The position numbers were made by a program, and so were the translations under genes. A stretch of DNA of 55,083 bases from Nitrospiria bacterium (lineage in GTDB: Bacteria; Nitrospirota; RBG-16-64-22), in contig CAKKSE010000076.1 in the NCBI GenBank assembly GCA_919903025.1, forward strand, positions 1-55,083. The letters are read 5' to 3'. Every line of letters begins with the position of its first letter. Within the stretch, counting starts at the first letter, position 1. The notes beneath the pieces are model-generated. The model did not search any database. It saw nothing but the letters and a program-made list of their open reading frames with translations, and was not told the DNA's origin. Of this stretch, positions 3,801-47,204 are shown piece by piece.

Positions 3801-6023
<2,223 letters not shown>

Positions 6024-6025
6024 GG

Positions 6026-6514: not shown

Positions 6515-6546
6515 CGTGCCGCTTCTCCCGATTGCCTCGGCCGGAT

Positions 6547-8529: not shown

Positions 8530-8774
8530 GCGGGGTCTCTCTCGGCAAGATGAGGGTTGTTGCCTTGCAGGGCCATGACAACGCCACTCCTTGTGGTCCG
8601 CGCAATACTATCACACATCTCGCCGTTTTCTACATGAACGAGGACGTGAAGCTCGACTACCTCTATGCGGGTGTCTGCTTGATGGGCGCGGTCTACTTCA
8701 TGTTCCGCTCGGCGGGCGCGGCTACGGCCTGAGAGAGCGTCATCCTGATCGACAACCCCCTGCAGCCGCGGGAG

Positions 8775-14045: not shown

Positions 14046-14112
14046 CGAGACACTATGGCCGCCCGCGGTCCGGGCGGTCGGGCGGCAGGGCGCGTTCTCA
14101 TTCGCAGTTTCT

Positions 14113-14155
14113 CCGATTCACCCATTCACCGATTCACCGATTCATCCGCTCATCC
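14113..14155 (-). repeat. 8-nt tandem repeat (GGTGAATC on the sense/minus strand, about 5 units)
   Basis: The plus strand reads CCGATTCA CCCATTCA CCGATTCA CCGATTCA TCCGCTCA. The aldehyde dehydrogenase stop (14150..14152) lies in the last unit. Confidence 0.9.
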
Positions 14156-15714: not shown

Positions 15715-15770
15715 GGAATTGGAAATTGAAAATTGAAAATTGTAAATTGGAAATTGGAAGTTGGAAAAGT
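15715..15770 (+). repeat. 7-nt tandem repeat (GAAATTG/AAAATTG, about 8 units)
   Basis: GGAATTG GAAATTG AAAATTG AAAATTG TAAATTG GAAATTG GAAGTTG GAAAAGT, followed by TCGATGGTTGGGGGTCTCCCATCAACCGATCGACCCATCAACC (to 15812). Confidence 0.9.
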
Positions 15771-19641: not shown

Positions 19642-19686
19642 GGAATTGGAAATTGGAAATTGGAAATTGCAAGAATTGCAAGAATC
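19642..19686 (+). repeat. 7-nt tandem repeat (GAAATTG x4) followed by ATTGCAAGA x2
   Basis: GGAATTG GAAATTG GAAATTG GAAATTG CAAGAATTG CAAGAA, followed by TCGATGGTTGAGGTCGCCCATCGATCCATCAAC (to about 19717). Confidence 0.9.
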
Positions 19687-23292: not shown

Positions 23293-23889
23293 ATGAATCC
23301 TCCGCGGTCGAAAGAAGAGATCCGCCGGACGATGATCGCGGCGCGCGAGGCGCTCGATCCCTCCGAGCGCCGGATCATGAGCGAAGCGATCGCCGCCCGG
23401 CTCGGCTCGATGCCGTTCTTCGAGGGAGCGCGGGCGGTCGGGCTCTATAGGGGCGTGCGCGGGGAAGTCGAGACGGATCTCCTCGTTGAGCGGTGCTTCC
23501 GCGAAGGCCGGAAGGTAGCCGTTCCCGTCGTCCGGCGGGAGGAGCGGCGACTTCTCTTTTCCTGGACCTCCCACGAGACGCGCTGGGCGGCCGGTCCGTT
23601 CGGCATTCCCGAGCCGGCGCCGGAGGACGTGGAGCCGGCGGACGTCGCGTCCCTCGATCTCCTCGTGATGCCGGGGGTCGCGTTTGCGGAGGATGGTTCT
23701 CGCTTGGGCTACGGCGGGGGATACTACGACCGGCTTCTTCGGGAGGCCGCCCGGCGGCCGGTGACCGTCCTCCTCGCGTTCGAGATGCAGGGCGTGCCGG
23801 AGCTTCCGCGGGGCGATCACGACGTCCGTGTGGACTGGATTGTGACGGAAGGAAGGACGATCAACGCGGGTGAATCGGTGAGTCGGTGA
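23293..23889 (+). CDS. 5-formyltetrahydrofolate cyclo-ligase
   Basis: 198 aa with KEEIRR...R..L and the C-terminal [11 protein letters not shown] motif. The stop codon lies inside the GGTGAATC repeat. Confidence 0.85.
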
Positions 23890-23908
23890 ATCGGTGAATC
23901 GGAGAAAT
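23869..23908 (+). repeat. 8-nt tandem repeat (GGTGAATC, about 5 units)
   Basis: GGTGAATC GGTGAGTC GGTGAATC GGTGAATC GGAGAAAT. Contains the upstream stop (23887..23889) and ends 10 nt before the folD ATG. Confidence 0.9.
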
Positions 23909-28083: not shown

Positions 28084-28112
28084 TTGACACTCTCTGCCTC
28101 GTCCGATAGGAT
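28084..28112 (+). promoter_or_regulatory. sigma-70-type promoter TTGACA-N17-TAGGAT with an upstream T-tract, for the nuo operon
   Basis: Hexamers read directly, about 150 nt upstream of the nuoA ATG. Confidence 0.5.
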
Positions 28113-28264: not shown

Positions 28265-28636
28265 ATGCCGGAAACGCACCTCCCAACACAGTACCTGCCG
28301 GTTCTCCTCCTCCTGGCGCTCGCCGCCGGATTCGTCGTGATCAACCTCGTGATGGGCTCGCTGGTCCGTCCCAAGCGGCCGTCTGCCGAGAAGCTCACCC
28401 CCTACGAGAGCGGAATCCCGCCGATTGGCCAAGCCCAGCGGCGGTTCAACGTCCGGTTCTATCTTGTCTCGATGCTTTTCGTCTTGTTCGACATCGAAAC
28501 GGTCTTCCTCTATCCCTGGGCGGTCCTTCTGAAGAAGCTCGGGATGTTCGGTTTCGTCGAGATGGCAGTCTTCATCATGATCCTTCTTGTGGGATACGGG
28601 TATGCGTGGAAGTCGGGGGCATTGAATTGGGATTAG
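28265..28636 (+). CDS. nuoA: NADH-quinone oxidoreductase subunit A
   Basis: ORF trimmed to MPETHLPTQYLPVLL. YESGIPP...FDIETVFLYPWA motif, 123 aa, three TM helices. Confidence 0.85.
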   Translation: MPETHLPTQYLPVLLLLALAAGFVVINLVMGSLVRPKRPSAEKLTPYESGIPPIGQAQRRFNVRFYLVSMLFVLFDIETVFLYPWAVLLKKLGMFGFVEMAVFIMILLVGYGYAWKSGALNWD

Positions 28637-28656
28637 GGATTAGGGATTAGGGGGTA
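28629..28656 (+). repeat. 7-nt tandem repeat (GGGATTA x3 plus GGGGGTA); canonical G-quadruplex motif
   Basis: GGGattaGGGattaGGGattaGGGGG. The nuoA TAG stop (28634..28636) lies inside unit 1. Confidence 0.9.
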
Positions 28657-28660
28657 AGGC

Positions 28661-29149
28661 GTGGAAGGCGGAGTGAAAGCCGTGGAGTTTTCAGAGACGG
28701 CGAAGAGGGAGATCGAGAAGATCCTGTCGCGCTATCCGACGAAAGGCGCGGCGCTCCTTCCCGTCCTCCATCTGGCCCAGGAGGAGTTCGGCGTCCTGAC
28801 GGAAGGCGTTCGGGCGCGCGTGGCGCAGGTCCTGGATCTTCCGCCGGCCCAGGTGGAAGGGGTCGTGAGCTTCTACACGCTCTTCAAGACTCAGCCGACC
28901 GGCCGCCACGTGATCTGGCTCTGCCAGACGCTCTCCTGCGATCTCGCGGGGACGCGGAGCCTGCTCGGGCACCTCGATCGCCGCTATTCTCTCAAGCCCG
29001 GCGGGACGACGGCCGACGGGCGGTTCACGCTCGTGATGGCCGAGTGCCTGGGCGGGTGCGGGACGGGGCCGGCGATGATGGTGAACTGGGACTATCACGA
29101 TCGGCTTACGCCGGAGCGGGTGGATGAGGTGCTGGAGAAATACCGGTGA
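28661..29149 (+). CDS. nuoE: NADH-quinone oxidoreductase subunit E (2Fe-2S)
   Basis: Cys ligands in CQTLSC and AECLGGCGTGP, and the SFYTLF motif. The GTG start is uncertain (28661 or 28673). Confidence 0.85.
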   Translation: MEGGVKAVEFSETAKREIEKILSRYPTKGAALLPVLHLAQEEFGVLTEGVRARVAQVLDLPPAQVEGVVSFYTLFKTQPTGRHVIWLCQTLSCDLAGTRSLLGHLDRRYSLKPGGTTADGRFTLVMAECLGGCGTGPAMMVNWDYHDRLTPERVDEVLEKYR

Positions 29150-29221
29150 ATCGGTGAATGGGTGAATCGGTGAATCGACCAATGACTATTGACCAATGAC
29201 CAATGACCAATGACGGATGAC
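29145..29221 (+). repeat. two abutting tandem arrays: GGTGAATC x4 (8 nt) then GACCAAT x6-7 (7 nt)
   Basis: The array contains the nuoE TGA (29147..29149) and the nuoF ATG (29217..29219). Confidence 0.9.
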
Positions 29222-30509
29222 TATGGAGCCGGTCCTTCTTAAGAGAATCGACATTCCGGGCATGGCGGAGATCGAGACCGCCGTGGCGAACGGCGCGTAC
29301 GCCAACCTTGGGAAGGGGCTGGGGATGAAGCCGGCGGACCTGCTCGAGCTGGTGAAGGCTTCGGGCCTTCGGGGAAGAGGCGGAGCGGGGTTCCCGACGG
29401 GAGCGAAGTGGGGATTCGCCGCTGGCGATCCCAAGACCCCTCGCTACCTTGTCTGCAACGCCGACGAGTCGGAGCCGGGGACGTTCAAGGACCGCCCGAT
29501 CCTCGAGAGGGACCCGCACCTTCTTCTTGAGGCGATGATCCTCTCCGGCCACGCGATCGGCGCGGAATACGGCTACATCTACATCCGCGGCGAGTACGCC
29601 GATGCCTACCGCATCCTCGCCAAGGCCGTGGAGCAGGCGTACGAGAAAGGCTTCCTGGGGAATGACATCCAGGGCTCGGGGACGCGCTTCGAGTGCGTCG
29701 TCCACAGGGGGGCTGGCGCCTACATCTGCGGGGAGGAGACGGCCCTCCTAGAGTCGATCGAGGGGCGCCGCGGACAGCCGCGGAACAAGCCGCCGTTCCC
29801 CGCGAACGTGGGGCTCTTCGGCAAGCCGACCGTCATCAACAACGTGGAAACGCTCGCCAACGTTCCGTTCATCGTCGAGAGGGGCGCGGAGTGGTTCAAG
29901 TCGATGGGAACGGAGAAGGCGGCCGGGCCGAAGCTCTTCTGCGTCTCCGGCCGGGTGAACAAGCCGGGCGTCTACGAGCTGGCGATGGGAACGCCGCTCC
30001 GAACTCTCATCAAGGACGTCTGCGGCGGAGTGCCCGGCGCGAAGCGGATCAAGGCCGTGATTCCGGGCGGCGTCTCGGCCGCCTTCCTCGGGCCGGAAGA
30101 CCTCGACGTGAAGCTCGACTTCGAATCGGTGGCGGCGGCGGGGTCGATGTTCGGCTCCGGGGGCGTGATCGTCCTGGACGAGGACGACTGCATCGTGAGC
30201 GCGACGCTCAACATCATGCGTTTCTTCAAACACGAGTCGTGCGGCAAGTGCACGCCGTGCCGGGAGGGGACGTACTGGCTCTACAACGCTCTCCACCGGA
30301 TCGAGGAGGGCGGCGGCCGGCCGGAGGACCTCGCGCTTCTTCTGGACATCGCCGACAACATCTCCGGCAAGAGCTGTTGCCCGCTGGCCGACGGGGCGAT
30401 CTCCTGCGTCGTCTCTTCCGTCAAGAAGTTCCGGGCCGAGTACGAGCGGCACATCCGCGAGGGAGGCTGTTCCTTCGCGGCGCGCGAGGCGGGGGCGGCT
30501 AAGGCATGA
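29217..30509 (+). CDS. nuoF: NADH-quinone oxidoreductase subunit F (FMN, 4Fe-4S)
   Basis: GLRGRGGAGFPTG, CNADESEPGTFKDR, GAGAYICGEETALL and ESCGKCTPCREG...SCCPL. Confidence 0.9.
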   Translation: MTMEPVLLKRIDIPGMAEIETAVANGAYANLGKGLGMKPADLLELVKASGLRGRGGAGFPTGAKWGFAAGDPKTPRYLVCNADESEPGTFKDRPILERDPHLLLEAMILSGHAIGAEYGYIYIRGEYADAYRILAKAVEQAYEKGFLGNDIQGSGTRFECVVHRGAGAYICGEETALLESIEGRRGQPRNKPPFPANVGLFGKPTVINNVETLANVPFIVERGAEWFKSMGTEKAAGPKLFCVSGRVNKPGVYELAMGTPLRTLIKDVCGGVPGAKRIKAVIPGGVSAAFLGPEDLDVKLDFESVAAAGSMFGSGGVIVLDEDDCIVSATLNIMRFFKHESCGKCTPCREGTYWLYNALHRIEEGGGRPEDLALLLDIADNISGKSCCPLADGAISCVVSSVKKFRAEYERHIREGGCSFAAREAGAAKA

Positions 30510-31690
30510 CCGATCTCATCCAGCCGATATTCCAGACTGCCGCGTGGGTCGTCATTTATGCCTTCGTTCCGTCGTTCATCGTGATGAACGCCGTCCTGAT
30601 CGCGGGCGCCTTCCTCACGTACGTCGAGCGGAAGGTCATCGGCCACATTCAGCAGAGGCCGGGGCCGAACCGGGTCGGGCCCCTTGGTCTTCTCCAGCCC
30701 CTGGCCGACGGGATCAAGCTCCTCACGAAGGAAGACATCATCCCCGCGCAGGCGGACCGGTTCGTGTTCGTGATCGCGCCGTTCCTCTCCCTCGTTCCCG
30801 TCATCATGGCCTACGCCGTGATCCCCTGGGGGGAGCCGACGACGCTCATGGGGGTCCTTCCATGGCTCCGCGTGTTCGACGGGTGGGGTTATATTCCGGC
30901 CGCGTGGAACCCCTTTCCGCTCGTTCCCGAGAAGGCGACGCTCGTCATCTCCAACCTCAACATCGGCGTCCTCTACATCCTGGGCATGTCGGGGCTCTCT
31001 GCCTACGGGATCATCCTGGCCGGCTGGGGCTCGAACTCCAAGTACGCTCTCCTGGGAGGCCTCCGGTCGGCCGCGCAGGTGATCTCCTACGAGATCGCCA
31101 TGGGTCTCGCCATCGTGGGCACCCTGATGCTCGCCGGGTCCCTCTCGCTCGTGGACATCGTGCGCGCGCAGGAGTCGAGCTTCTGGTACGTCCTGGCCCA
31201 GCCGCTCGGGTTCCTGATCTTCTTCATCTCCGGGATCGCCGAGACGAACCGCGCGCCCTTCGACCTCCCGGAGGCGGAGAGCGAGATCGTGGCCGGGTTC
31301 CACACGGAGTATTCCGGCATGCGGTTTGCCTTCTTCTTCATGGCCGAATACGGGGCGATGGTGATCATCTCGGCCATGGCATCGATCCTCTACCTGGGCG
31401 GGTGGCTCCCGCTCCAGCTTCCGATCCCGTCCGCTCTGCCGGCGATCGGTTCCACGCTGGCCGTTACGGACGGGGCCGTGCGCGCCGTCAACGGGGCGCT
31501 GATGGCGGTCCCGCCGATCGTCTGGATGCTTTCGAAGATCGGCTTCTTCCTGTTCGTCTACATCTGGCTGAGGGCGACGTTCCCCAGGCTCCGGTACGAT
31601 CAACTGATGCACCTGGGATGGAAGGTCATGCTTCCGCTGGGCCTCGCGAACATCTTCGTCACGGGCCTCGTGATTCTGGTGAAGGGGTAG
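30506..31690 (+). CDS. nuoH: NADH-quinone oxidoreductase subunit H
   Basis: ATGA overlap with the nuoF stop. ERKVIGHIQQRPGPNRVGPLGLLQPLADGIKL, AETNRAPFDLPEAESEIVAGFHTEYSG and PRLRYDQLM. At 394 aa it is somewhat longer than usual. Confidence 0.9.
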   Translation: MTDLIQPIFQTAAWVVIYAFVPSFIVMNAVLIAGAFLTYVERKVIGHIQQRPGPNRVGPLGLLQPLADGIKLLTKEDIIPAQADRFVFVIAPFLSLVPVIMAYAVIPWGEPTTLMGVLPWLRVFDGWGYIPAAWNPFPLVPEKATLVISNLNIGVLYILGMSGLSAYGIILAGWGSNSKYALLGGLRSAAQVISYEIAMGLAIVGTLMLAGSLSLVDIVRAQESSFWYVLAQPLGFLIFFISGIAETNRAPFDLPEAESEIVAGFHTEYSGMRFAFFFMAEYGAMVIISAMASILYLGGWLPLQLPIPSALPAIGSTLAVTDGAVRAVNGALMAVPPIVWMLSKIGFFLFVYIWLRATFPRLRYDQLMHLGWKVMLPLGLANIFVTGLVILVKG

Positions 31691-31694
31691 ACGG

Positions 31695-32234
31695 GTGAAT
31701 CTGGATCAGGCGTTCTTTCTCTACTTCGCGGCGATGATTGTCGTCTTTTCGATCGTGACGATCACGCGGAAGAACCCGGTCTACGCCGTCATGGCGCTGT
31801 TGGTCGTCTTCTTCCATGTGGCGGGACTGTACGTCCTGCTCAATGCCGAGTTCATCGCCGCGCTCCAGGTCGTCGTCTACGCGGGCGCGATCCTCGTCCT
31901 CTACCTCTTCGTCCTGATGCTGTTGTCCGTCCCGCGTGAGGCCCTCGGCGCGGCGGCCCACCGCCGTTGGCCGGTCTACGCACTCGTCGGCGGCGCGACG
32001 ACGTTCGAGATCGCCCTTCTCCTGGCGCGGTCGAAATTCGCGCCGAGGCCGGGACCGTACCCGCCCGACGTCGTCCGGGAGATGGGGTCCACGCAGGCGA
32101 TCGGGACGGTCCTCTTCACGGAGTTCCTGTATCCGTTCGAGGTGATCTCCCTCGTGCTTCTCGTGGCGATGATCGGGGCGATCGTCCTGACCAAGAAGTG
32201 GACGCCGGCCCAGGGCGGGGAGGAGGGACGATGA
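31695..32234 (+). CDS. nuoJ: NADH-quinone oxidoreductase subunit J
   Basis: GTG start 4 nt after the nuoH stop. 179 aa, hydrophobic, with NAEFIAALQVVVYAGAILVLYLFVLML. Confidence 0.8.
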   Translation: MNLDQAFFLYFAAMIVVFSIVTITRKNPVYAVMALLVVFFHVAGLYVLLNAEFIAALQVVVYAGAILVLYLFVLMLLSVPREALGAAAHRRWPVYALVGGATTFEIALLLARSKFAPRPGPYPPDVVREMGSTQAIGTVLFTEFLYPFEVISLVLLVAMIGAIVLTKKWTPAQGGEEGR

Positions 32235-32536
32235 CGATTCCGCTTTCCTGGGTTCTGGCGCTCTCGGCGGTCGTCTTCGGGATCGGCGTGATCGGCCTCC
32301 TCACGCGCCGGAACATCCTGATCCTTCTCATGTCGCTCGAGTTGATCCTGAACGCGGCCAACATCAACCTGGTCGCCTTCTCGAATCACCTTCACTCGAT
32401 GCGGGGGAACGTGATCGTCGTCTTCACGATCGCCGTCGCGGCGGCCGAGGCGGCCGTCGGCCTCGCCATCCTCCTGGCCCTCTTCCGCAACCGCCGGACC
32501 GTGAACCTCGACGAGGTGAGGGAGATGAAGGGATGA
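32231..32536 (+). CDS. nuoK: NADH-quinone oxidoreductase subunit K
   Basis: ATGA overlap with the nuoJ stop. 101 aa with LMSLELILNAANINLVAF and AVAAAEAAVGLAIL. Confidence 0.85.
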   Translation: MTIPLSWVLALSAVVFGIGVIGLLTRRNILILLMSLELILNAANINLVAFSNHLHSMRGNVIVVFTIAVAAAEAAVGLAILLALFRNRRTVNLDEVREMKG

Positions 32537-34485
32537 CGCGGTCGGTCGTTTTGTTCAGGGATCTGCTGATCCCGATCCTGCCGCTCGCGGCGTTCCTGGT
32601 GAACGGCCTCTTCGGCCGGTGGACGCGCGAGAAGGCCCACTGGGTCTCCGTCCCGGCCGTCGTCCTCTCGTTCCTCCTGTCGCTGTTCGTCCTCAAGGAC
32701 GTTCTCTCCGGCGTCAATACGTACGCCTCTCTTTACCGCTGGATTACGGTCGGCGCGTTCGACGTCTCCGTCGGCGTCATGATCGACCCGCTCACGGCCG
32801 TCATGCTGATCGTCGTGACGTCGGTCTCGTCCCTGGTTCACATCTATTCCATCGGATACATGCACGGCGACAAGGGGTACGCCCGGTTCTTCGCGTACCT
32901 CTCGCTCTTCACGTTCTCCATGCTGATGCTGGTTCTCTCCAACAACCTTCTCGAGCTCTTTGTCTTCTGGGAGGCCGTGGGGCTTTGTTCCTACCTCCTG
33001 ATCGGCCACTGGTACGACCGGCGCTCCGCCGCCGACGCGGCGACCAAGGCGTTCGTCGTGAACAGGGTCGGCGACTTCGGTTTCGGCCTGGGGCTCCTTC
33101 TCATCTTCGTCACGCTCGGGACTCTCGACTATCAGGCTGTCTTCCTCGGCGCGAAAGCCGCGACGAACCAGACGGTCGACCTCCTCGCCCCGTTCGGCGG
33201 CAAGCTCGACGTCGGGCTCGTGACCTTGATCGCCCTCCTCCTCTTCGCCGGCGCGATGGGGAAGAGCGCCCAGCTTCCCCTCCACGTCTGGCTCCCGGAC
33301 GCGATGGAGGGCCCGACGCCGGTCTCGGCTCTCATCCACGCGGCGACGATGGTGACGGCGGGCGTCTACATGGTGGCCCGGATGCACCCGGTCTTCGAGC
33401 TTTCTCCTTCGGCGATGGCGACCGTGGCCGTCGTGGGGGGCGGGACGGCCATCTTCGCGGCGACGATCGGCCTCGTCCAGAACGACATCAAGCGGGTTGT
33501 GGCGTACTCCACGGTGAGCCAGCTCGGGTACATGTTCCTGGCCTGCGGGATCGGCGCGTACGGCATCGCAATCTTCCACCTGATGACGCACGCGTTCTTC
33601 AAGGGGCTCCTCTTCCTCGGCGCCGGGAGCGTGATCCATGCGCTTTCGGGCGAGCAGGACATTCGGAAGATGGGGGGTCTCCGGAACAAGATCCCGGCGA
33701 CCTACCTCACGTTCCTGATCGGGTCGCTCTCGCTGGCGGGTGTCCCGCTCTTCGCCGGCTTCTTCAGCAAGGACGAGATCCTGACGCGGGCCTTCTTCGC
33801 CGGAGACCTGGGGCGCGTTCTCTGGGGCGTGGCGCTCCTTGGGGCCTTGCTGACGGCCTTCTACGCTTTCCGGCTCGTCTATCTCGTCTTCCACGGCGAG
33901 ACCCGTCTGCTTCCCGACGCGGCGCATCACGTCCACGAGTCGCCCCCGGTCATGACGGTCCCTTTGTGGATCCTGGCCGTTCTGGCCGTCTTCTCCGGGT
34001 GGGTGGGAATCCCGCTGATCGCCGGCGGCGACAAGATCGGCCACTTCCTGGAGCCGGTCTTCAAGGGCGTAGCGCACGTTGCGCATGCGGACATTCGCCT
34101 GGAGTTTTGGCTGATCGCGGTTTCCGTCATCGTGGCGCTCCTGGGGATCGCCGTGGCGGACATGTTCTACAGGACCCGGCCGGCCATGCCGGACAAAGTC
34201 GCGTCGGCTTGGCCCCGCTTCTACTCTCTTTTGCTCAACAAGTGGTGGTTCGACGAGATTTTCGACTGGGCGATCGTCCGGCCGACCCGGAGGATTTCAG
34301 AAGCGTTCCTCTGGAAGGTTGCCGACGTCCGGATCATCGACGCCTTCGTGAACGGCGTCGGGAGCGTGACGCAACAGGCCGCGGCCTCCTGGCGGCGAAT
34401 CCAAACCGGACTCACGCAGGATTACGCGATGACGGTCGTCCTGGGGCTCCTCGCGATCGTCGCCGTCTGGCTTGCGGCATGGTGA
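32533..34485 (+). CDS. nuoL: NADH-quinone oxidoreductase subunit L
   Basis: ATGA overlap with the nuoK stop. 650 aa antiporter-like subunit with WEAVGLCSYLLIGHW, GKSAQLPLHVWLPDAMEGPTPVSALIHAATMV and a C-terminal extension. Confidence 0.9.
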   Translation: MTRSVVLFRDLLIPILPLAAFLVNGLFGRWTREKAHWVSVPAVVLSFLLSLFVLKDVLSGVNTYASLYRWITVGAFDVSVGVMIDPLTAVMLIVVTSVSSLVHIYSIGYMHGDKGYARFFAYLSLFTFSMLMLVLSNNLLELFVFWEAVGLCSYLLIGHWYDRRSAADAATKAFVVNRVGDFGFGLGLLLIFVTLGTLDYQAVFLGAKAATNQTVDLLAPFGGKLDVGLVTLIALLLFAGAMGKSAQLPLHVWLPDAMEGPTPVSALIHAATMVTAGVYMVARMHPVFELSPSAMATVAVVGGGTAIFAATIGLVQNDIKRVVAYSTVSQLGYMFLACGIGAYGIAIFHLMTHAFFKGLLFLGAGSVIHALSGEQDIRKMGGLRNKIPATYLTFLIGSLSLAGVPLFAGFFSKDEILTRAFFAGDLGRVLWGVALLGALLTAFYAFRLVYLVFHGETRLLPDAAHHVHESPPVMTVPLWILAVLAVFSGWVGIPLIAGGDKIGHFLEPVFKGVAHVAHADIRLEFWLIAVSVIVALLGIAVADMFYRTRPAMPDKVASAWPRFYSLLLNKWWFDEIFDWAIVRPTRRISEAFLWKVADVRIIDAFVNGVGSVTQQAAASWRRIQTGLTQDYAMTVVLGLLAIVAVWLAAW

Positions 34486-34492
34486 GACAAAG

Positions 34493-35998
34493 ATGAAGTT
34501 TCCGATCCTGTCGCTCACGACGTACATCCCCCTGATCGGCGCCCTGTACCTCCTCTTCATGAAGGAGCACGAAGGGATGGTCCGGCGGCTCTCGCTCGCC
34601 GTCTCGCTAGCCGCTCTTGCCCTCTCGGTCCTCATGCTCGGCCACTTCGATCCGAAGAGCGCGGGGTTCCAGTTCGTGGAGAACCTCGAGTGGGCGCCTT
34701 CCCTCGGCATCTCCTACAAGATGGGCGTGGACGGCATCAGCGTTCTCTTCATCGTCCTGACGACGGTCCTCACCGTCCTGTGCGTTCTCGTCTCCTGGAC
34801 TCAGGTGAAGAAGTACGTGCGGGAGTTCCACGTGGCCCTTCTCGTCATCGAGTCGGCGATGCTCGGCGTTTTCTCGGCGCTCGACCTCGTCCTCTTCTAT
34901 GTCTTCTGGGAAGTGATGCTCATCCCCATGTTCCTCATGATCGGGATCTGGGGAGGGCCGAACCGCGTTTATGCCGCCGTGAAGTTCTTCCTCTACACGC
35001 TGGCCGGGTCGGTCCTCATGCTGATCGGCATCATCGTCCTCTACGTCCACGGCGGAAAGACGTTCGACGTCGCGGCCCTGCTTCAGGTCAAGTTCGCGGC
35101 GCCCGTCCAGTTTTGGGTCTTCCTGGCCTTCTTCGTCGCGTTCGCCGTGAAGGTTCCGATGTGGCCGGTCCACACGTGGCTTCCGGACGCCCATACCGAG
35201 GCGCCCACGGCGGGTTCCGTGATCCTGGCCGGGATTCTCATCAAGATGGGGGCGTACGGCTTCCTCAGGTTCTCGCTCCCGATGTTTCCCGACGCGACCG
35301 TCACCTTCGCTCCGTACATCCTCGCCCTTTCGCTTGTGGCGATCATCTACGGGGCGCTCGTGACGCTCGTCCAGACCGACCTCAAGAAGCTCATCGCCTA
35401 CTCGTCGGTCTCGCACATGGGGTTCGTGACGCTCGGGATCTTCGCCCTGAACCGCCAGGGAATCGAGGGCGGGATCATGCAGATGGTCAACCACGGGATC
35501 ATCACGGGGGCGTTGTTCCTTCTCATCGGGATCATCTACGAGCGGACGCACAGCCGGGAGATCTCGGCCTACGGGGGGATCGCCCGGAGCGTCCCGCGGT
35601 ACGCTTCGTTCTTCGTCCTCTTCGTCCTCGCGTCGCTCGGCCTGCCGGGTCTGAACGGGTTCGTGGGGGAGTTCCTGGTCCTCCTGGGGGCATTTCAGCG
35701 CGACCGGATCGTCGGGGTCCTGGCGATGACGGGGATCATCCTGGCTGCCGTCTACCTTCTCTGGATGACCCAGCGTGTCCTCTTCCAGGAGATGACGCAT
35801 CCCGAGAACGAGAAGCTGGCCGATATCGACACGCGGGAATTCATCACGCTTCTCCCGCTGGCCGTTTTGGTCGTTTTCCTGGGCGTCTATCCCAATCCCG
35901 CCCTTTCGGTGATGCACGCCTCGGTGGACCAGATGATGGCGAAGATGGAAGCGCACAAGGCGGCGGCCATCACCTGGGCGCAGGCATGGCCGTTCTGA
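34493..35998 (+). CDS. nuoM: NADH-quinone oxidoreductase subunit M
   Basis: ORF trimmed to MKFPILSL, 7 nt after the nuoL stop. FWEVMLIPMFLMIGIWGG and KVPMWPVHTWLPDAHTEAPTAGSVILAG. Confidence 0.9.
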   Translation: MKFPILSLTTYIPLIGALYLLFMKEHEGMVRRLSLAVSLAALALSVLMLGHFDPKSAGFQFVENLEWAPSLGISYKMGVDGISVLFIVLTTVLTVLCVLVSWTQVKKYVREFHVALLVIESAMLGVFSALDLVLFYVFWEVMLIPMFLMIGIWGGPNRVYAAVKFFLYTLAGSVLMLIGIIVLYVHGGKTFDVAALLQVKFAAPVQFWVFLAFFVAFAVKVPMWPVHTWLPDAHTEAPTAGSVILAGILIKMGAYGFLRFSLPMFPDATVTFAPYILALSLVAIIYGALVTLVQTDLKKLIAYSSVSHMGFVTLGIFALNRQGIEGGIMQMVNHGIITGALFLLIGIIYERTHSREISAYGGIARSVPRYASFFVLFVLASLGLPGLNGFVGEFLVLLGAFQRDRIVGVLAMTGIILAAVYLLWMTQRVLFQEMTHPENEKLADIDTREFITLLPLAVLVVFLGVYPNPALSVMHASVDQMMAKMEAHKAAAITWAQAWPF

Positions 35999-36009
35999 GG
36001 GCATGAAAC

Positions 36010-36041
36010 GGGGAAGCGGAGAAACGGTGAATCGGAGACAA
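36010..36041 (+). repeat. degenerate 8-nt tandem repeat (GGGGAAGC GGAGAAAC GGTGAATC GGAGACAA)
   Basis: Between nuoM and nuoN. The last unit supplies a GGAG 9 nt before the nuoN GTG. Confidence 0.7.
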
Positions 36042-36043
36042 CA

Positions 36044-37492
36044 GTGATTCAGTTCAATGCGGCTGATCTGGTCTGGCTTCTTCCGGAGATCATCCTCTTC
36101 GTCACGGCTTCGGCCGTCGTCCTCCTGAGCGTGATCGTCCGGCCAGAGGCGCGCTCGGGGCTCGCGGCGCTCGCCGTGATCGGGGCGCTGGCCGCGGGGT
36201 GGGCCGCGTACGGCCTCAGCGACGGAAACGTGGAACTGTTTTCCCGGATGGTCATCGTCGACCCGTTCGCCACGTACTTCCGCTACCTGTTCGTCCTCGC
36301 CGTCCTCGGGGGTGTTCTCCTTTCCGTCCGGACGCTCCAGACGGAGGGAGGGAACCGGTCCGAATACTACGGGCTCATGCTCTTCGCCGCGATCGGGATG
36401 ATGGTCATGGCCGAGGCGGGCGACCTCCTCATGGTCTACATCGGCCTGGAGCTCATGTCCCTGTCGCTGTACATCCTCGCCGGCTTCTACCGCCGCGAGA
36501 CGCGGTCGAACGAAGCCGCGATCAAGTACTTCATCCTGGGGACGCTCGCCTCGGGAATCTTCGTTTACGGCTTGTCGCTTCTCTACGGCCTCACGGGGAC
36601 GACGTCGATCCGCGCGATCGGCGAGATCGTGTCGGCGGGGGGTCTTTCCCGCCCGGCTCTCGTCCTGGCCCTGGCGATGGTCGGAACGGCCTTCGCGTTC
36701 AAGGTGGCGGCCGTTCCTTTCCACATGTGGACGCCGGACGTCTACGAGGGGGCTCCCACGCCGGTTACGGCCTTCATGTCAGTCGGGCCGAAGGCGGCCG
36801 GATTCGCCGTTTTCCTGCGCGTTTTCCTCGAAGCTTTCCCGGCCGCCCAGCCGGACTGGAACAACCTCGTCATCGTCCTTTCCATCCTCACGATGGCCGT
36901 GGGGAACATCATCGCCATCGCCCAGACGTCGGTCAAGCGGATGCTGGCTTACTCGTCCATTGGCCACGCGGGGTACATCCTGATCGGCCTCGTCGGCGGG
37001 ACGGCTGTGGGGGCGGGGGCCGTCCTCTTCTACCTCCTCATGTACACGATCACGAACCTGGGCGCGTTCGGCATCCTGGTCGTCCTGCAGAGGGAGAAGG
37101 GGCGGGTGGAGACGCTGGACGATTTCGCCGGTCTCGGGAAGACGCATCCGGCCGCGGCCCTGGGGATGCTCATCTTCCTCTTCTCGCTCACCGGCATTCC
37201 GCCGATGGCCGGGTTCTTCGGGAAGTTCTACCTCTTCACGGCCGCCGTCAAGGCGGGGTACGTCTGGCTCGCCGTCCTCGGCGTTCTCATGAGCGCCGTG
37301 TCGGCCTTCTACTATCTCCGCGTCGTCCTCGCCATGTACATGCAGGAGCCCGCCGCGGCGGGGGCCGGGGAGCCGATGTCCCAGCCCAGCGCCGTCCTGG
37401 CCGTCACGATCGCCGCCTTCCTCACCGTCGGGATCGGCATCCTGCTCAATCCTCTTCTCTCTCTCGCGGCGGCGTCCCTGCCCAAGATGTGA
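36044..37492 (+). CDS. nuoN: NADH-quinone oxidoreductase subunit N
   Basis: GTG start. 482 aa antiporter-like subunit with FKVAAVPFHMWTPDVYEGAPTPVTAFM. Confidence 0.85.
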   Translation: MIQFNAADLVWLLPEIILFVTASAVVLLSVIVRPEARSGLAALAVIGALAAGWAAYGLSDGNVELFSRMVIVDPFATYFRYLFVLAVLGGVLLSVRTLQTEGGNRSEYYGLMLFAAIGMMVMAEAGDLLMVYIGLELMSLSLYILAGFYRRETRSNEAAIKYFILGTLASGIFVYGLSLLYGLTGTTSIRAIGEIVSAGGLSRPALVLALAMVGTAFAFKVAAVPFHMWTPDVYEGAPTPVTAFMSVGPKAAGFAVFLRVFLEAFPAAQPDWNNLVIVLSILTMAVGNIIAIAQTSVKRMLAYSSIGHAGYILIGLVGGTAVGAGAVLFYLLMYTITNLGAFGILVVLQREKGRVETLDDFAGLGKTHPAAALGMLIFLFSLTGIPPMAGFFGKFYLFTAAVKAGYVWLAVLGVLMSAVSAFYYLRVVLAMYMQEPAAAGAGEPMSQPSAVLAVTIAAFLTVGIGILLNPLLSLAAASLPKM

Positions 37493-37634: not shown

Positions 37635-38633
37635 ATGAACCCCTGGTCGAAAACGGTCCTCGGACTTGCGGCCGCCGGCATCCTTCTGCTCTGGCAGGCC
37701 CCGGCTCTGGCCGACATCTTCGAATGGACGGACGACCAGGGGAACACGCACTTCTCCGATAACCCCGGCACGATCCCAGAGAAATTTAGAAAGAACGCGA
37801 AGAAAAGCGGCGGCGAGGAGCCGGCGAAGAAGGAACAGCCGGCCTCTTCCGCGCCCCAATCCGCAAAGCCCGCCAAGCTCCCGGCGGGTCCCCGCCTCGA
37901 TGCGCCTTCCGATGCGCCGGCCGATTTCTCATTCGGAGCGGGAAGCCCCCTTGGCTCAAAGAGGTACGTTGTCCGCTTCCACGGCGAGGGGGGAAACGTC
38001 AAGTACGTCAAGGCCAAGGTGGGGAGCGAGTCTGCGACATGGATGCTGTTGGACACGGGGGCGACGTACTGCCGCTTGAGCCGGCCGCTCGCCAAGTCGG
38101 CGGGGATCGACTTCGGTGAATCGACGCCCCTCATTTTTCTTGGGACGGCGTCCGGCGTGATCGGCGAGCCGTTCGTCAAGGTGGACCGGATCGAGATGGG
38201 CGGCGCGGAGATTCGGGACGTCTACGCCACGGTCGAAGCTCCGATCGGCTCGGGAGCGGAGAGAGCCCCCGTTCCGTCGTTCGATCCCGACCGCGTCAAC
38301 GGGATTCTCGGAATGAGCTTTCTGGACAACTTCCGCGTGACGGTGGACAGCGAGCGCAGTCAGTTGATCCTGGAGCCCCGGTCGGGGCTCGATGCGCGCG
38401 ATGCCCGCGGCGGGCACAGCAAGCGGTGGTGGCAGAGCCAGTTCCGGTCCGCCAAGAAGAATATCGACCATGCGGAGCAGCGACTTGCGCGGCTAAAGGA
38501 GAGGACGCGAGCGGAGGATTACCAGGATATCAAGAAGCGCCTGGAGATCACGATCGACTTCTTCCAGCGGGAACTCTCGAATCTCGAAACCAAGGCTTCC
38601 CACGCGAACGTTCCGCAGGAGTGGAGGAAGTAG
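37635..38633 (+). CDS. secreted DUF4124-like / retropepsin-like aspartic protease fusion
   Basis: ORF trimmed to MNPWSKTVLGLAAAGILLLWQAPALA (signal peptide). IFEWTDDQGNTHFSDNP, a low-complexity linker, WMLLDTGATYC (the D-T-G-A active-site motif) and a C-terminal coiled coil. Confidence 0.6.
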   Translation: MNPWSKTVLGLAAAGILLLWQAPALADIFEWTDDQGNTHFSDNPGTIPEKFRKNAKKSGGEEPAKKEQPASSAPQSAKPAKLPAGPRLDAPSDAPADFSFGAGSPLGSKRYVVRFHGEGGNVKYVKAKVGSESATWMLLDTGATYCRLSRPLAKSAGIDFGESTPLIFLGTASGVIGEPFVKVDRIEMGGAEIRDVYATVEAPIGSGAERAPVPSFDPDRVNGILGMSFLDNFRVTVDSERSQLILEPRSGLDARDARGGHSKRWWQSQFRSAKKNIDHAEQRLARLKERTRAEDYQDIKKRLEITIDFFQRELSNLETKASHANVPQEWRK

Positions 38634-38712
38634 GGTCCTCCGCGGTTCTTCGCACCTTTTCCCCGTTCTTCACAACGGCGTCGGGATACCCACGCACAGC
38701 TCGATCGGGTTG

Positions 38713-39981
38713 TCAGCCAAGCGGGGAGAGCTTTTCCTTCTTCGGGAAAAGGGGGAGGAAGCGGGAGAAGAGCCAAAGGAGCCCGAACGGCAGGAGAAGA
38801 AGCAGAAGAAATCCCGCCAGCCCTTCCTTGAAGGTGTCCAGATCGTGGGGGATGATGGGCAGTTGGTAGTTCATGTACCCCGAGAAGGTGAGGGAGAAGG
38901 CCTGCCCGCCGATGACCACGTTCCAGCGCATCATGAAGACGCCGAAGAGGATCAGGATCGAGGCGACGAACGCCCGCCTGATGCTCAAGCTGGGAAGGAG
39001 CAACAGCAAGAACGGCAGAGCCATCCCCAGGCCGTACTGGAGCCCGAAGATGTTGAAGGCGAACCGATCGAAGATGATGGTCTGCAGGATCTCATAGGGC
39101 TTCTTCGCCGTATAGCTATGGAACACGAGATCCAGCAATTCCAGGGACAAGGCCAGGATCATGAAAAAGACCAGATACTTCGCAATGATGCGGATGATCT
39201 GGATGTCCGTCTCCCGCTGGGGCATCGCCGACGGGTGTCCCCTTTCCGGTCCCCACGGGCTGGGCCGCTTGAAGATCACACGGATTTCCATGATCACGAT
39301 GTAGGTGAAGAGGCAGAGCGCAATGCCCGAGACGACGGCGGACATGATGAAGATCACGGGCATGAGAGGGGTCATCCAGAGGGCGTTGGCCTTCACCGAT
39401 CCGAAGATGAACCCGACGTATCCGTGGAGGAAGCAGGCGACCGGGATCCCGACCCCGGCCAGGACGGTCGCAACCCGCTCATCCAGCTTGAGGGCTTTCT
39501 CGCTCACGTCATAGCTGCCGAGCGTGAGGACGCGGTACAGAAGCCCCTTGAGTCTCGCCGGCAAACCCTCGGCCTTTCTGAGCGAAAGGGCCGACTCCAC
39601 GATGTGCTGTCGGTAGGTGAACCAGACCTCCGAAGCGACGATGGCCGCGTAGACGGAGAAGACGACGCCGAAAGCCGCGATGGCCGAGGTGAAATGCGGC
39701 GTGAACAAGACATGGATGTTCCGCTGCGGCTGCTGCAAGTGGAACAGCAGAGGCAGGGGCGCCGCCAGCAGGAGGGCGAGGGAGAAGACCAGGGCGAAGG
39801 GGGTGACGGGCTTCAGCTCCTCCTTGCCGAAAACGTGGGAGAGAGAGGAGAGGACGAACGCCCCGGCCACGAGGCCCGTGAGATAGGGATAGAGGACGAT
39901 CTGGATGCTCCAGACGATGTTCTCGTTGGGATAGACGAACAGCTCCTTGATCGTCCAGATCTCGCCATGCACAGGCATCAT
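38713..39981 (-). CDS. NrfD/PsrC-family integral membrane quinone-interacting subunit
   Basis: 422 aa, about 10 TM helices. N-terminus IVWSIQIVLYPYLTGLVAGAFVLSSL typical of NrfD. Starts 1 nt after the stop of the FeS gene. Confidence 0.8.
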   Translation of the reverse strand: MMPVHGEIWTIKELFVYPNENIVWSIQIVLYPYLTGLVAGAFVLSSLSHVFGKEELKPVTPFALVFSLALLLAAPLPLLFHLQQPQRNIHVLFTPHFTSAIAAFGVVFSVYAAIVASEVWFTYRQHIVESALSLRKAEGLPARLKGLLYRVLTLGSYDVSEKALKLDERVATVLAGVGIPVACFLHGYVGFIFGSVKANALWMTPLMPVIFIMSAVVSGIALCLFTYIVIMEIRVIFKRPSPWGPERGHPSAMPQRETDIQIIRIIAKYLVFFMILALSLELLDLVFHSYTAKKPYEILQTIIFDRFAFNIFGLQYGLGMALPFLLLLLPSLSIRRAFVASILILFGVFMMRWNVVIGGQAFSLTFSGYMNYQLPIIPHDLDTFKEGLAGFLLLLLLPFGLLWLFSRFLPLFPKKEKLSPLG

Positions 39982-39982
39982 C

Positions 39983-40756
39983 TCACCTCACGATCCGGTC
40001 CAGGCCGATGTAGAAGGCGTGCGGCTTCGTTCCGTACTCCTCCTTCAGGACGGTGACCCGCTCGGTCCGGACGATTCGGCTGACCTCGCTGTTGGGGTCC
40101 CGGATGTCTCCCCACTTCCGGACCCCGAAGGCGCAGGCGTCCACGCACGCCGGGTTCATCCCCTTCGTGATCCGGTGGTAGCAGAACGTGCACTTCTCGG
40201 CGGTCTTGTGCACCGGATGGAAGAACCGCGTTCCGAACGGGCAGGCCTGAAGGCAGTAGCCGCAGCCGATGCACCAACTCCGGTCCACGAGGACGACCCC
40301 CTCGTCCGTCACGTGGCTGGCCCCCACGGGGCAGACCTGGACACACGGCGGGTTCTCGCAGTGGTTGCAGACCTTGGGGACGAAGAACCCCTTCGCAATC
40401 TGTTCCGCCGGGACCTGTTCGCCCATCGGGTTGTTCTTGGTATATCCATCGCGGGCGGCGTTGGGAGAATCGATGAGGACCCGGCCGTCCGTAGTCACGA
40501 CGTACCGCTCAACCCAGGTCCGCGAGGCGGTTGTTTCCCAGGGGATCTCGTTCTCGCGCTTGCAGGCCTGGACACACATCCCGCAGCCGACGCACTTCGT
40601 GGCGTCGATGACCCACGCCCAGCGCGGCCCCTTCCCCTTCCGCACGGCGGCGAGGATCTCGGGCGTGAGAAGTTCATACGCCGCCGCGGGGACCGCGGCG
40701 GCCGCCAGAGCCTTGGCGCTGTTCTTGAGGAAATGCCGCCTGGACCAATTCATCAT
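39983..40756 (-). CDS. Tat-exported 4x[4Fe-4S] ferredoxin-like subunit (NrfC/PsrB/DmsB family)
   Basis: Twin-arginine signal MMNWSRRHFLK. Cys clusters CVGCGMCVQAC, CNHCENPPCVQVCP, CIGCGYCLQACP and CTFC...CVDAC. Confidence 0.85.
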   Translation of the reverse strand: MMNWSRRHFLKNSAKALAAAAVPAAAYELLTPEILAAVRKGKGPRWAWVIDATKCVGCGMCVQACKRENEIPWETTASRTWVERYVVTTDGRVLIDSPNAARDGYTKNNPMGEQVPAEQIAKGFFVPKVCNHCENPPCVQVCPVGASHVTDEGVVLVDRSWCIGCGYCLQACPFGTRFFHPVHKTAEKCTFCYHRITKGMNPACVDACAFGVRKWGDIRDPNSEVSRIVRTERVTVLKEEYGTKPHAFYIGLDRIVR

Positions 40757-40757
40757 T

Positions 40758-41243
40758 TCACTTCCACCCCGCTGTGTGGACGCTGTGGCACGTCACGCAC
40801 GGAAGGCCGGGGTTGTGTACTTCCGGGTTCTGCATCTTCATCGGGATGGGGCCGCCCGGCAGTCCGGTGTAGACCTTCGGCCGGTAGGGGAGATCGGCAT
40901 GGCACCTCAGGCAGAGGTCCCGCTCCCGGTCGACGGCCAGCTTTGGCGGATCCATTGGATGGTCGCGGGCCGGGCCGTGACAGTTCTCGCACTGGATCCG
41001 GGAATGCTTCGAGGCCGCGATTTTGGCGTAATTCTCATGATGGCAACCCGCGCAGTAGTCCTTCCCCTTGTGTTTCACCTGCACGGCTTTCCAGTCGTCT
41101 TCATTCCCCGTCCGGTACCATCCGTACGTATAATCCCCCCGGTGGACCCCGAAGTCGCCGGGGACGTACAGTGCCCGCGCCGTCAGGAAGAGCGCGAGAA
41201 GGCCTAGCGCAATCCAGAGAGGTCTGAAGACATGGGATCTCAT
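40758..41243 (-). CDS. membrane-anchored tetrahaem cytochrome c
   Basis: N-terminal TM helix and four CXXCH motifs (CAGCH, CENCH, CLRCH, CVTCH). Confidence 0.8.
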   Translation of the reverse strand: MRSHVFRPLWIALGLLALFLTARALYVPGDFGVHRGDYTYGWYRTGNEDDWKAVQVKHKGKDYCAGCHHENYAKIAASKHSRIQCENCHGPARDHPMDPPKLAVDRERDLCLRCHADLPYRPKVYTGLPGGPIPMKMQNPEVHNPGLPCVTCHSVHTAGWK

Positions 41244-41244
41244 G

Positions 41245-42030
41245 TCATGGAGAGGCCTTGGGCGTCTTCACGCGGTCCAGCTCGTTCTTGGCCGCCTGCG
41301 CGTGCTCGTAGGCGGAGATCCCTTTGACAAAGACCTCTTTGATATGGAAGGTATGCCAAGCCTGCTTGGCCAGCGAGAGATCTGCCTGCGCCCGTCCGAG
41401 TTCCGCCTCCGCGACGGCGACCGGACTTCCGGCCTGCTTGGCGGCTCCCAGGGCGTCCTTGAGCAGGGACAGGCTCAGCGCAGTTTTGCGGATGATCGCG
41501 ATCACCTCGTAGGCTTGGTACGGCTTCGGATGACACAGATTGCATGTCTCCTGCATCTCCTTCAGGCTCAGCACCTTGGTCGCCATGGCGCCGTGGCAGG
41601 TGGCGCAGTTGGGCCCCTTCCCCGTCTTCTGGAGCATCATGTAGTGGCGGCTTTTCTGGAATGCCTGGTATTGCTCATGACAGGTTCCGCACGTCTTGGG
41701 GATCGTCTGATAGAAGACCCGGCTCTTGGGATTGTTCGAATTCAGCACGCCCGCGTGGGCCTCTTTCTTCTCCGCCTTGGCGGGATCCCCGCCGTGACAG
41801 GAGTTGCAGGTCACCTGCTTCTTGGCGTGGACCGACTGCTCCCATTCGAGAAAGGAGTGTTTAACATGGGAAGGATCCGCCAGCGTCTTATGACAGTCGA
41901 TGCAGGAATTAGCCTCCGCCCCGGGCAATGGCCAGAGAAGAAGAACTCCAAGAACCATCCCAGCGATGACGACCCCCCCCCGAATCCAGGCAGAGCGTTC
42001 CCTCACCAGTTCCACACCCAGTCCCCGCAT
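41245..42030 (-). CDS. pentahaem cytochrome c
   Basis: Signal/anchor sequence, five CXXCH motifs (CIDCH, CNSCH, CGTCH, CATCH, CNLCH) and an alpha-helical C-terminal third. AAGGAG SD 8 nt upstream. Confidence 0.75.
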   Translation of the reverse strand: MRGLGVELVRERSAWIRGGVVIAGMVLGVLLLWPLPGAEANSCIDCHKTLADPSHVKHSFLEWEQSVHAKKQVTCNSCHGGDPAKAEKKEAHAGVLNSNNPKSRVFYQTIPKTCGTCHEQYQAFQKSRHYMMLQKTGKGPNCATCHGAMATKVLSLKEMQETCNLCHPKPYQAYEVIAIIRKTALSLSLLKDALGAAKQAGSPVAVAEAELGRAQADLSLAKQAWHTFHIKEVFVKGISAYEHAQAAKNELDRVKTPKASP

Positions 42031-46400: not shown

Positions 46401-47140
46401 TCAAGCTCGATCATCTGACGAAACACTTCGGGCGCATCGCCGCCGTCGACGACCTTTCGCTCGAGGTTCGGGGCGGGGAGATCATGGCGTTCCTGGGGCC
46501 GAACGGGGCGGGGAAGACCACGACTCTCAGGATGATCGGCGGCCTGCTCGAGCCCACCGGCGGGCGGATCGAGGTGAAGGGACACGATCTGGCAAGGTCG
46601 CCGATCGAGGTGAAGCGGATCATGGGATTCATCCCCGATCGGCCGTATCTCTACGAAAAACTGACCGCCCGCGAGTTCCTAGTCTTTTCCGGCGGGCTCT
46701 ACGGTGTTCCGCCGGACCGGGCGTCATCGCGCGGGAAGGAGCTTCTCCATCTCTTCGGTCTCACGGATTGGTCGGATGAGCTGATCGAGTCGTTCTCCCA
46801 CGGGATGAAACAGCGCCTCGTCATGGCTTCCGCCCTGCTCCACGAGCCGGAGGTCCTTGTCATCGACGAGCCTATGGTCGGCCTCGACCCGCGCGGCACG
46901 AGGATGCTCAAAAACCTTTTCCGCGGGCTGAGGGACCGGGGGGTCACGATCCTCCTTTCGACGCACACACTCTCCGTCGCGGAGGAGATCTGCGACCGGG
47001 TGGCCATCATCCACAAGGGACGCTTGGTCTCCGTGGGGACGGTAGAGGATCTTCGCGTTCTCTCTCACAAGCACGAGGCGGGGTTCGAGGAAGTCTTCCT
47101 TGCGCTGACGAGCGAAGGGGAGGAAGGAACTGCAGATTGA
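46397..47140 (+). CDS. ABC transporter ATP-binding protein
   Basis: GTGA overlap with the upstream stop. Walker A GPNGAGKTT, signature SHGMKQR, Walker B VLVIDEP. Confidence 0.85.
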   Translation: MIKLDHLTKHFGRIAAVDDLSLEVRGGEIMAFLGPNGAGKTTTLRMIGGLLEPTGGRIEVKGHDLARSPIEVKRIMGFIPDRPYLYEKLTAREFLVFSGGLYGVPPDRASSRGKELLHLFGLTDWSDELIESFSHGMKQRLVMASALLHEPEVLVIDEPMVGLDPRGTRMLKNLFRGLRDRGVTILLSTHTLSVAEEICDRVAIIHKGRLVSVGTVEDLRVLSHKHEAGFEEVFLALTSEGEEGTAD

Positions 47141-47204
47141 AAATTGAAAATTGAAAATTTGAAATTGGAAATTGGAAATTGGAAAACGAAAGCCAAGAGC
47201 CAAG
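47133..47204 (+). repeat. 7-nt tandem repeat (AAAATTG/GAAATTG, about 8 units) followed by AGCCAAG x2
   Basis: Contains the ABC ATPase TGA (47138..47140) and ends at the ATG of the permease gene. Confidence 0.9.

Follow-up and report, generated by a model that had tools for sequence, protein, structure and literature searches.

The DNA analysed here is a 55,083-nt stretch, referred to as the window, of contig CAKKSE010000076.1 (assembly GCA_919903025.1) from a Nitrospiria bacterium placed in GTDB class and genus RBG-16-64-22 of the Nitrospirota. The window itself lies within a 117.8-kb ENA contig. Nine tightly spaced open reading frames (ORFs) on its plus strand, at 28265-37492, form the operon nuoA-E-F-H-J-K-L-M-N and thus represent nine of the 14 core genes of complex I, the NADH:quinone oxidoreductase. 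Genes for NuoB, NuoC/D, NuoG and NuoI are missing. The parts of the locus, including the sole promoter-like site on the plus strand between 27900 and 38800, are the following.

28084..28112, plus strand: sigma-70-like promoter candidate, TTGACA-17-TAGGAT, 10 of 12 positions, about 150 nt upstream of nuoA; a consensus match only
28265..28636, plus strand: nuoA, 123 amino acids; PF00507, E 6.6e-39
28629..28652: (GGGATTA)n tandem array covering the nuoA stop codon and the nuoA-nuoE spacer; detected by Tandem Repeats Finder
28661..29149, plus strand: nuoE, 162 amino acids; PF01257, E 3.1e-48; TIGR01958 above cut-off
29144..29214: (CGGTGAAT)n and (GACCAAT)n tandem arrays in the nuoE-nuoF spacer
29217..30509, plus strand: nuoF, 430 amino acids; PF01512, PF10589 and SLBB; TIGR01959 equivalog, 581 bits against a cut-off of 559
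30506..31690, plus strand: nuoH, 394 amino acids; PF00146, E 7.4e-124
31695..32234, plus strand: nuoJ, 179 amino acids; PF00499, E 9.8e-42
32231..32536, plus strand: nuoK, 101 amino acids; PF00420; NF004320 above cut-off
32533..34485, plus strand: nuoL, 650 amino acids; PF00361 and PF00662; TIGR01974, 805 bits
34493..35998, plus strand: nuoM, 501 amino acids, one copy; PF00361; NF004499 equivalog, 677 bits against a cut-off of 585
36044..37492, plus strand: nuoN, 482 amino acids, the final gene of the operon; PF00361; TIGR01770, 480 bits against a cut-off of 333

Pfam assigned the nine ORFs with E-values from 1e-27 to 1e-124. The curated NCBIfam cut-offs were reached by NuoE, F, H, K, L, M and N, with NuoA and NuoJ slightly under. 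The junctions are tight: 24 nt between A and E, 67 nt between E and F, an ATGA overlap of F and H, 4 nt between H and J, ATGA overlaps of J/K and K/L, 7 nt between L and M and 45 nt between M and N. As the nuoH start overlaps the nuoF stop, nuoG is absent from the F/H junction, and as nuoJ starts 4 nt past nuoH, nuoI is absent from the H/J junction. The site of nuoB-C-D in canonical operons is occupied by the (GGGATTA)n array. An earlier note on this DNA had proposed the same nine-gene content and the same junction lengths and ATGA overlaps; the former was confirmed by Pfam and the latter match exactly.

None of the missing subunits was found around the operon. NuoB, NuoCD (or NuoC and NuoD), NuoG and NuoI from two Nitrospirales operons and one Trichlorobacter operon served as tblastn queries against all frames of the window and gave nothing better than an E-value of about 0.001. 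The weak matches at this level are generic 4Fe-4S motifs in an unrelated Fe-S protein at 39983-40756. When proteins of 2M-type nuo clusters, the second kind of nuo cluster known from Nitrospirota, were compared with the six frames of the window, only the nine nuo genes matched, and Pfam revealed no Nuo, hydrogenase or Mrp-type protein among the other large ORFs of the window. The ENA contig contains no nuo genes in the 10 kb past either window end, bringing the covered region to about 75 kb in all. The statement in the earlier note that no ORF of the window resembles NuoB, C, D, G or I was therefore upheld by tblastn and Pfam and now extends 10 kb beyond each end. We saw no pseudogene fragments in the operon spacers, which are too short for hidden remnants and consist partly of short tandem arrays. 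That these arrays are deletion scars was ruled out by the presence of the same arrays in unrelated spacers and in many phyla.

The pruned gene order was recovered from at least 12 independent assemblies of the genus RBG-16-64-22. Two public metagenome-assembled genomes (MAGs) from this genus align collinearly with the window, at 92-93% nucleotide identity, over every unusual junction that their contigs span. MHEK01000047 covers F/H, H/J, J/K and K/L at 92% nucleotide identity, and JACPZO010000168 covers glgB-A-E-F-H; a different array, (GGAAATT)n, stands at the nuoA-nuoE position of JACPZO01. Four ENA contigs from Hainich groundwater and six Logan contigs share 99.5-99.98% identity with the window and have the order unchanged. 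Moreover, a second, distant lineage represented by three further assemblies contains overlapping A and E genes, E-F, the ATGA overlap of F and H, and H-J-K-L. Its proteins are 66% (A), 58% (E), 67-70% (F), 65% (H), 56% (J) and 77% (K) identical to those of the window. Because two lineages about 35% apart in protein have the pruned order in common, the order predates their split. These comparisons indicate an old and long maintained arrangement, in line with the earlier view that it does not result from a single recent deletion.

Apart from these lineages, relatives of NuoH in GTDB genomes and JGI metagenomes, including Nitrospirales, Geobacterales and Gemmatimonadota, share at most 55% identity and are encoded in canonical A-B-C/D-E-F-G-H-I-J-K-L-M-N operons wherever the contig is long enough, with two exceptions (loci L032 and L357, described below). 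In about 160 relative loci, we found no other that lacks nuoB, nuoC/D, nuoG and nuoI, and no intermediate state between the canonical and the pruned order. The earlier note had considered that an ordinary split of the operon might be common in the lineage. The arrangement is indeed fixed in a small lineage, whereas the other relatives examined are canonical. As the nearest homologues of every subunit reside in canonical A-B-CD-E-F-G-H-I-J-K-L-M-N operons, the operon is derived from a complete one. The retained genes have the same order and orientation as in the canonical nuoA-N operons (Thermus thermophilus 4HEA, Escherichia coli 7NYH), and the nearest canonical clusters are those of Nitrospirales with a fused nuoCD, to which the nine proteins are orthologue-grade at 45-60% identity. 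The membrane arm is likewise of the three-pump type with a NuoL of canonical length. In contrast to the canonical operon, nuoB, nuoC/D, nuoG and nuoI are gone from three positions, leaving junctions that range from a 4-nt overlap to a 24-nt gap.

All nine genes encode genuine subunits of complex I. Eight of the proteins (NuoL, M, N, A, J, K, E and F) are of canonical length, and NuoL shows no indels relative to 58 canonical relatives and no lateral-helix insertion. NuoH, L, M and N score highest on complex I models rather than on hydrogenase-4 or Mrp models. The window proteins keep 629 of the 675 near-invariant residues, defined as alignment columns at least 97% invariant among canonical relatives, and the changes are mostly conservative; NuoA keeps 26 of 28 and NuoH 90 of 95. 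The 2Fe-2S (N1a) ligands of NuoE are complete (C88-x4-C93-x35-C129-x3-C133), and NuoF carries the flavin mononucleotide (FMN) motif GRGGAGFPTG as well as the cysteines of the 4Fe-4S cluster N3 (C342-xx-C345-xx-C348...C388). Thus the membrane core A, H, J, K, L, M and N is of complex I type and the NADH-oxidising pair NuoE and NuoF has its FMN, N3 and N1a ligands, while the quinone (Q) module B, C, D and I and NuoG are not encoded alongside. Between the window and the two public MAGs, the ratio of nonsynonymous to synonymous substitutions (dN/dS) was 0.08-0.24 at a dS of about 0.17-0.28 for the seven genes covered, with values of 0.17 for nuoA (against JACPZO01), 0.24 for nuoE, 0.09 for nuoF, 0.12 for nuoH, 0.08 for nuoJ, 0.08 for nuoK and 0.14 for nuoL. 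Judged by their sequences, the nine genes look functional and make up a pruned canonical complex I operon.

In solved complex I structures, the NuoH loops between transmembrane helices (TM) 1-2 and TM5-6 form the lining of the quinone chamber jointly with NuoB and NuoD. Both the TM1-2 loop (ERKV..GPN..GLLQP.AD) and the TM5-6 loop (AETNR.PFD..AE.E) are intact in the alignment, as the earlier note had read from the sequence. Among solved structures, NuoH best matches ND1/Nqo8/NuoH of true complex I (E 1e-85 to 1e-77), and these rather than hydrogenase or Mrp-type subunits are its nearest counterparts. Two lineage-specific insertions, residues 118-141 (LPWLRVFDGWGYIPAAWNPFPLVP) and a Pro/Ala-rich segment at about 296-320, are absent from about 78 relatives; they lie outside the quinone-site loops, in loops that we judge periplasmic by the alignment only. 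Two scans of sequence collections with the peptides PAAWNPFP and AQESSFWY returned matches in this genus only.

A cluster of complementary content exists in the same phylum. The second, 2M-type nuo cluster lacking nuoE, nuoF and nuoH is characteristic of the genus Nitrospira (PMC6606698, PMC8115632; see also PMC12342949) and, as far as Chadwick et al. 2018 is cited in these three articles, corresponds to clade 3 of that work. In a scan with an unfused Nitrospirota NuoD, we found at least 42 Nitrospirota loci, 20 of them complete, that lack E, F and H and read A-B-C-D-G-I-J-K-L-M-M-N, as well as 15 canonical loci among the matches listed. One Hainich MAG carries a 2M-type and a complete canonical cluster on separate contigs (L418 and L440). 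The genes present in both Nitrospira clusters (A, J, K, L, M and N) are the genes of the operon studied here besides E, F and H, and outside this membrane arm the 2M content is its exact complement. Like this operon, the 2M cluster is incomplete, must borrow subunits from another cluster of the same genome and has the same boundary between shared and private genes, with A, J, K, L, M and N private.

The operon is nevertheless not a 2M-type cluster. The latter has the opposite content, with B, C, D, G and I present and E, F and H missing. It also has two nuoM genes and a NuoL reported to be lengthened (PMC6606698), whereas the single nuoM described here has no tandem partner and NuoL is unextended. 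NuoM is 53-61% identical to canonical NuoM and 42% and 33% identical to the two NuoM copies of the 2M cluster. Identities to the 2M copies of the other membrane-arm subunits are 47% (A), 47% (J), 58% (K), 50% (L) and 38% (N). By sequence identity, the membrane-arm proteins are thus nearer to the canonical ones (45-60%) than to the 2M copies.

An intact quinone-site surface of NuoH and an ordinary NuoEF are sensible only in combination with NuoB, C, D, I and G, which argues for completion of the enzyme elsewhere. We therefore consider it likely that the missing subunits are supplied in trans from another locus and that an ordinary NADH:quinone oxidoreductase results. Supply in trans was one of two explanations offered in the earlier note, and it has gained indirect support from purifying selection, the quinone-site loops and the 2M precedent. 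The other, a different connecting module, found no support, with no candidate in or near the window. The operon would contribute the NuoE/NuoF flavoprotein pair, the quinone-channel subunit NuoH and the three-pump membrane arm A, J, K, L, M and N. The genes for NuoG, NuoI, NuoB and NuoC/D, the electron carriers from NuoF to quinone, have been removed cleanly at three junctions, and B, C, D, G and I from another locus would complete the enzyme. RBG-16-64-22 is a small aquifer lineage with predicted sulfur oxidation (reverse Dsr, dsrEFH) and CO2 fixation via the reductive tricarboxylic acid (rTCA) cycle (PMC11033732, PMC10203281). In such a sulfur-oxidising autotroph, the completed complex would probably run largely in reverse, using the proton-motive force to produce NADH from quinol.

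As Nitrospirota have a second cluster with complementary content, reciprocal loss between two paralogous clusters already in existence is the shortest evolutionary path to the pruned operon, and as the 2M cluster lacks E, F and H, members of the phylum already use a cluster that must borrow them. The donor might then be a second nuo locus of the 2M type seen in Nitrospirota, with the order A-B-C-D-G-I-J-K-L-M-M-N. Gene loss from the two clusters would have been complementary, leaving a single peripheral arm with NuoH to serve either of two membrane arms. Our comparative analysis makes this 2M donor with reciprocal gene loss conceivable enough to be put forward tentatively, at rather less than even confidence. 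It is possible, and again more doubtful than probable, that the peripheral-arm genes are single-copy and divided between this operon (E, F and H) and a 2M-type cluster (B, C, D, G and I), so that sharing would be obligatory.

Several observations weigh against completion in trans, or against a 2M-type donor in particular. The latter presupposes a 2M-type cluster in the RBG-16-64-22 lineage, and NuoB, C, D, G and I were not found in any RBG-16-64-22 sequence reached. Exact scans for the intergenic arrays (AATTGGA)3 and (SGGTGAAT)3 yielded about 25 random pieces of 8 kb from MHEK01 and JACPZO01, together roughly 0.2 Mb out of about 5 Mb, and none of them contained nuo genes. No RBG-16-64-22 contig was among the best 80 matches of the unfused NuoD scan. 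The best 120 matches of Nitrospirales NuoCD in 5.8 billion proteins were all from Nitrospirales at 72% identity or more; with the best matches of both scans filled by Nitrospirales, the RBG-16-64-22 lineage was out of reach. With the public MAG at about 90% completeness, scanning all of it would still not remove every doubt. Finally, the contig ERZ1300416 NODE_9 (L083), whose positions 13988-15493 correspond to 34493-35998 of the window, has a nuoM with in-frame TAG at codons 121 and 139, the former changed from TCG; nuoM is intact in the window and in the other assemblies. The two stops could represent a consensus error or a real loss-of-function subpopulation.

Some further leads on the missing genes came to nothing. 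Weak matches in the sampled pieces (L281 and L296) proved to be generic ferredoxin and molybdopterin motifs and not nuo genes, and a promising contig with a NuoCD match belonged to a different MAG with the canonical A-B-CD-E order. The published supplementary tables searched give no nuo content per genome. Anantharaman 2016 flags RBG_16_64_22 for 'H2 production', with no group 1-3d hydrogenase column set among the columns listed. This flag could reflect a NuoD- or NuoG-like match; it is too vague and was not used.

If the partner genes are not part of a second cluster with its own membrane arm, the operon may simply be split, with B, CD, G and I lying elsewhere, either side by side or dispersed, and a single complex I as the product. 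All evidence for gene function fits such a split equally well. In cyanobacteria, the ndh genes are scattered. Scattered nuo or ndh genes occur in other bacteria too, and a survey found a mix of split and single-cluster complex I (PMC12361115). However, this explanation needs three gene blocks to leave the operon cleanly, or else a duplication of the whole operon followed by reciprocal loss, and no intermediate state was encountered in the relative loci. Differential loss is shorter given that a complementary second cluster is already present in Nitrospirota. An ordinary split is a possibility to be reckoned with, albeit one that we would not expect to prove correct.

A new type of complex, in which NuoEF, NuoH and the membrane arm work with a non-homologous connecting module replacing G, I, B, C and D, is improbable. 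It would explain why the five connecting subunits are absent from the 75 kb around the operon and from the sampled pieces of related genomes. Yet no candidate gene for such a module lies in or near the window, and the quinone-site loops that NuoH contributes alongside NuoB and NuoD are conserved under purifying selection. Moreover, NuoE and NuoF match ordinary complex I in type and length. To our knowledge, no complex with a NuoH-type subunit lacks NuoB- and NuoD-like partners, which also counts against a new complex. The downstream NrfD/Fe-S/cytochrome c cluster was ruled out as a connector by its Tat signal, its c-type cytochromes and its opposite strand.

The incompleteness of the operon and the two premature nuoM stops in one co-assembly might suggest the remnant of a second complex I operon, decaying or inactive and retained by chance. 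This is very improbable in view of nine intact ORFs with overlapping starts and stops, low dN/dS at a dS of about 0.2, a gene order conserved over about 35% protein divergence and spacers free of pseudogene fragments. An assembly or binning artefact, i.e. the misassembly at the junctions that the earlier note had asked to be checked, has nothing in its favour and is practically excluded by identical junctions in assemblies from different groups, assemblers and sites (Rifle, California groundwater, Hainich and Logan unitigs) as well as in the divergent lineage.

Complex I is usually seen as a fixed unit of 14 subunits expressed from one operon. The Nitrospira 2M cluster without E, F and H already hinted at subunit sharing between paralogous clusters, but as a complete canonical operon is always present in Nitrospira, sharing is only assumed there. 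Here, the canonical operon itself lacks the Q-module and NuoG, yet is under purifying selection over deep divergence. If the partner genes are single-copy, sharing would be obligatory and the operon would provide natural genetic evidence for module swapping. The boundary of exchange would separate the peripheral arm together with NuoH from A, J, K, L, M and N. With B, C, D, G and I in a 2M-type cluster, the NADH-oxidising arm with NuoH would be obligatorily common to three-pump and four-pump membrane arms. Complex I could then act as a machine with two gears, at about 4 or 5 H+ per 2 e-, one for forward and one for reverse electron flow. The 2M-type Q-module and NuoG would be able to dock NuoEF, which bears on the use of NADH versus ferredoxin by 2M complexes. 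The lineage would offer a simple system for this electron-carrier question in rTCA autotrophs that rely on reverse electron transport. If, in contrast, the partner is a plain B-CD-G-I locus, the arrangement would be an unusual but ordinary split operon.

Other reduced relatives of complex I differ in what they have lost. The 11-subunit enzymes (cyanobacterial NDH-1, Fpo and the Campylobacterota-type Nuo without N-module) likewise lack a whole functional block (PMC12361115). They drop E, F and G and always keep B, C, D, H and I, whereas here E and F, the flavoprotein of the N-module, are kept and the Q-module and NuoG are lost. Membership in the group 4 [NiFe]-hydrogenases, including Mbh and formate hydrogenlyase, does not apply, with no NuoD- or NuoB-like ORF. 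An Acidobacteriota locus (L032; CAWEUE010000004.1, 7738-17155) with nuoA-C-D-H-J-K-L-M-N resembles the operon in being a tight cluster without the Fe-S subunits B and I and in having H followed by J. It differs in the retention of C and D, the absence of E, F and G and its placement in another phylum. On a short JGI soil contig (L357), H directly adjoins J as well. L032 shows that nuo clusters have been pruned in other phyla too, and such clusters may be commoner than usually recognised. A large survey groups such cases as 'Nuo-Partial' (PMC12361115), and in the literature searched we found no description of an A-E-F-H-J-K-L-M-N cluster. What is new here is this arrangement; the gene families themselves are known complex I subunits.

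The operon is flanked by glgB upstream on the opposite strand and by an aspartyl-protease/DUF4124 gene after nuoN. Further downstream, four convergent genes on the minus strand (38713-42030) encode two multihaem cytochromes c, a 4Fe-4S protein with a twin-arginine translocation (Tat) signal (SRRHFLK) and an NrfD-like membrane subunit. The Tat signal implies that this redox cluster faces the periplasm, and by sequence it looks like a quinol:cytochrome c module of the Cbc, ACIII or DsrJOP kind. The gene calls of the Hainich H32 variant L084 include no NrfD or aspartyl-protease gene in the corresponding stretch; L084 aligns to the window there save for a gap near 38584-38825.

Arrays of 7-8-mers, namely (AATTGGA)n, (CGGTGAAT)n, (GACCAAT)n and (GGGATTA)n, are found in many intergenic spacers of the window. 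Their positions are as follows.

Window: 14109-14144, 15717-15767, 19644-19669, 23869-23906, 28629-28652, 29144-29214 and 47136-47185
L039: 7960-8000

Exact three-copy versions of (AATTGGA) and (CGGTGAAT) occurred in more than 110 contigs among the matches listed, including Patescibacteria, Acidobacteriota, Nitrospirota and Bacteroidota, and one Acidobacteriota contig had up to 8 array matches in 8 kb. Contig L231 (DOHC01000033.1, Nitrospiraceae UBA8922), which carries a canonical A-B-CD-E-F operon, has (SGGTGAAT)3 arrays just upstream of it, suggesting that the repeat family is common to several Nitrospirota classes.

At the left of the window, the region 2000-9300 has a G+C content of about 0.60 as compared with 0.64-0.69 and holds a DNA methylase, a 660-amino-acid protein without Pfam match, a DUF1828 protein and an RHH/PIN toxin-antitoxin pair. 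The region resembles an inserted island of the defence or mobile type. A DDE transposase is encoded just past the right end of the window.

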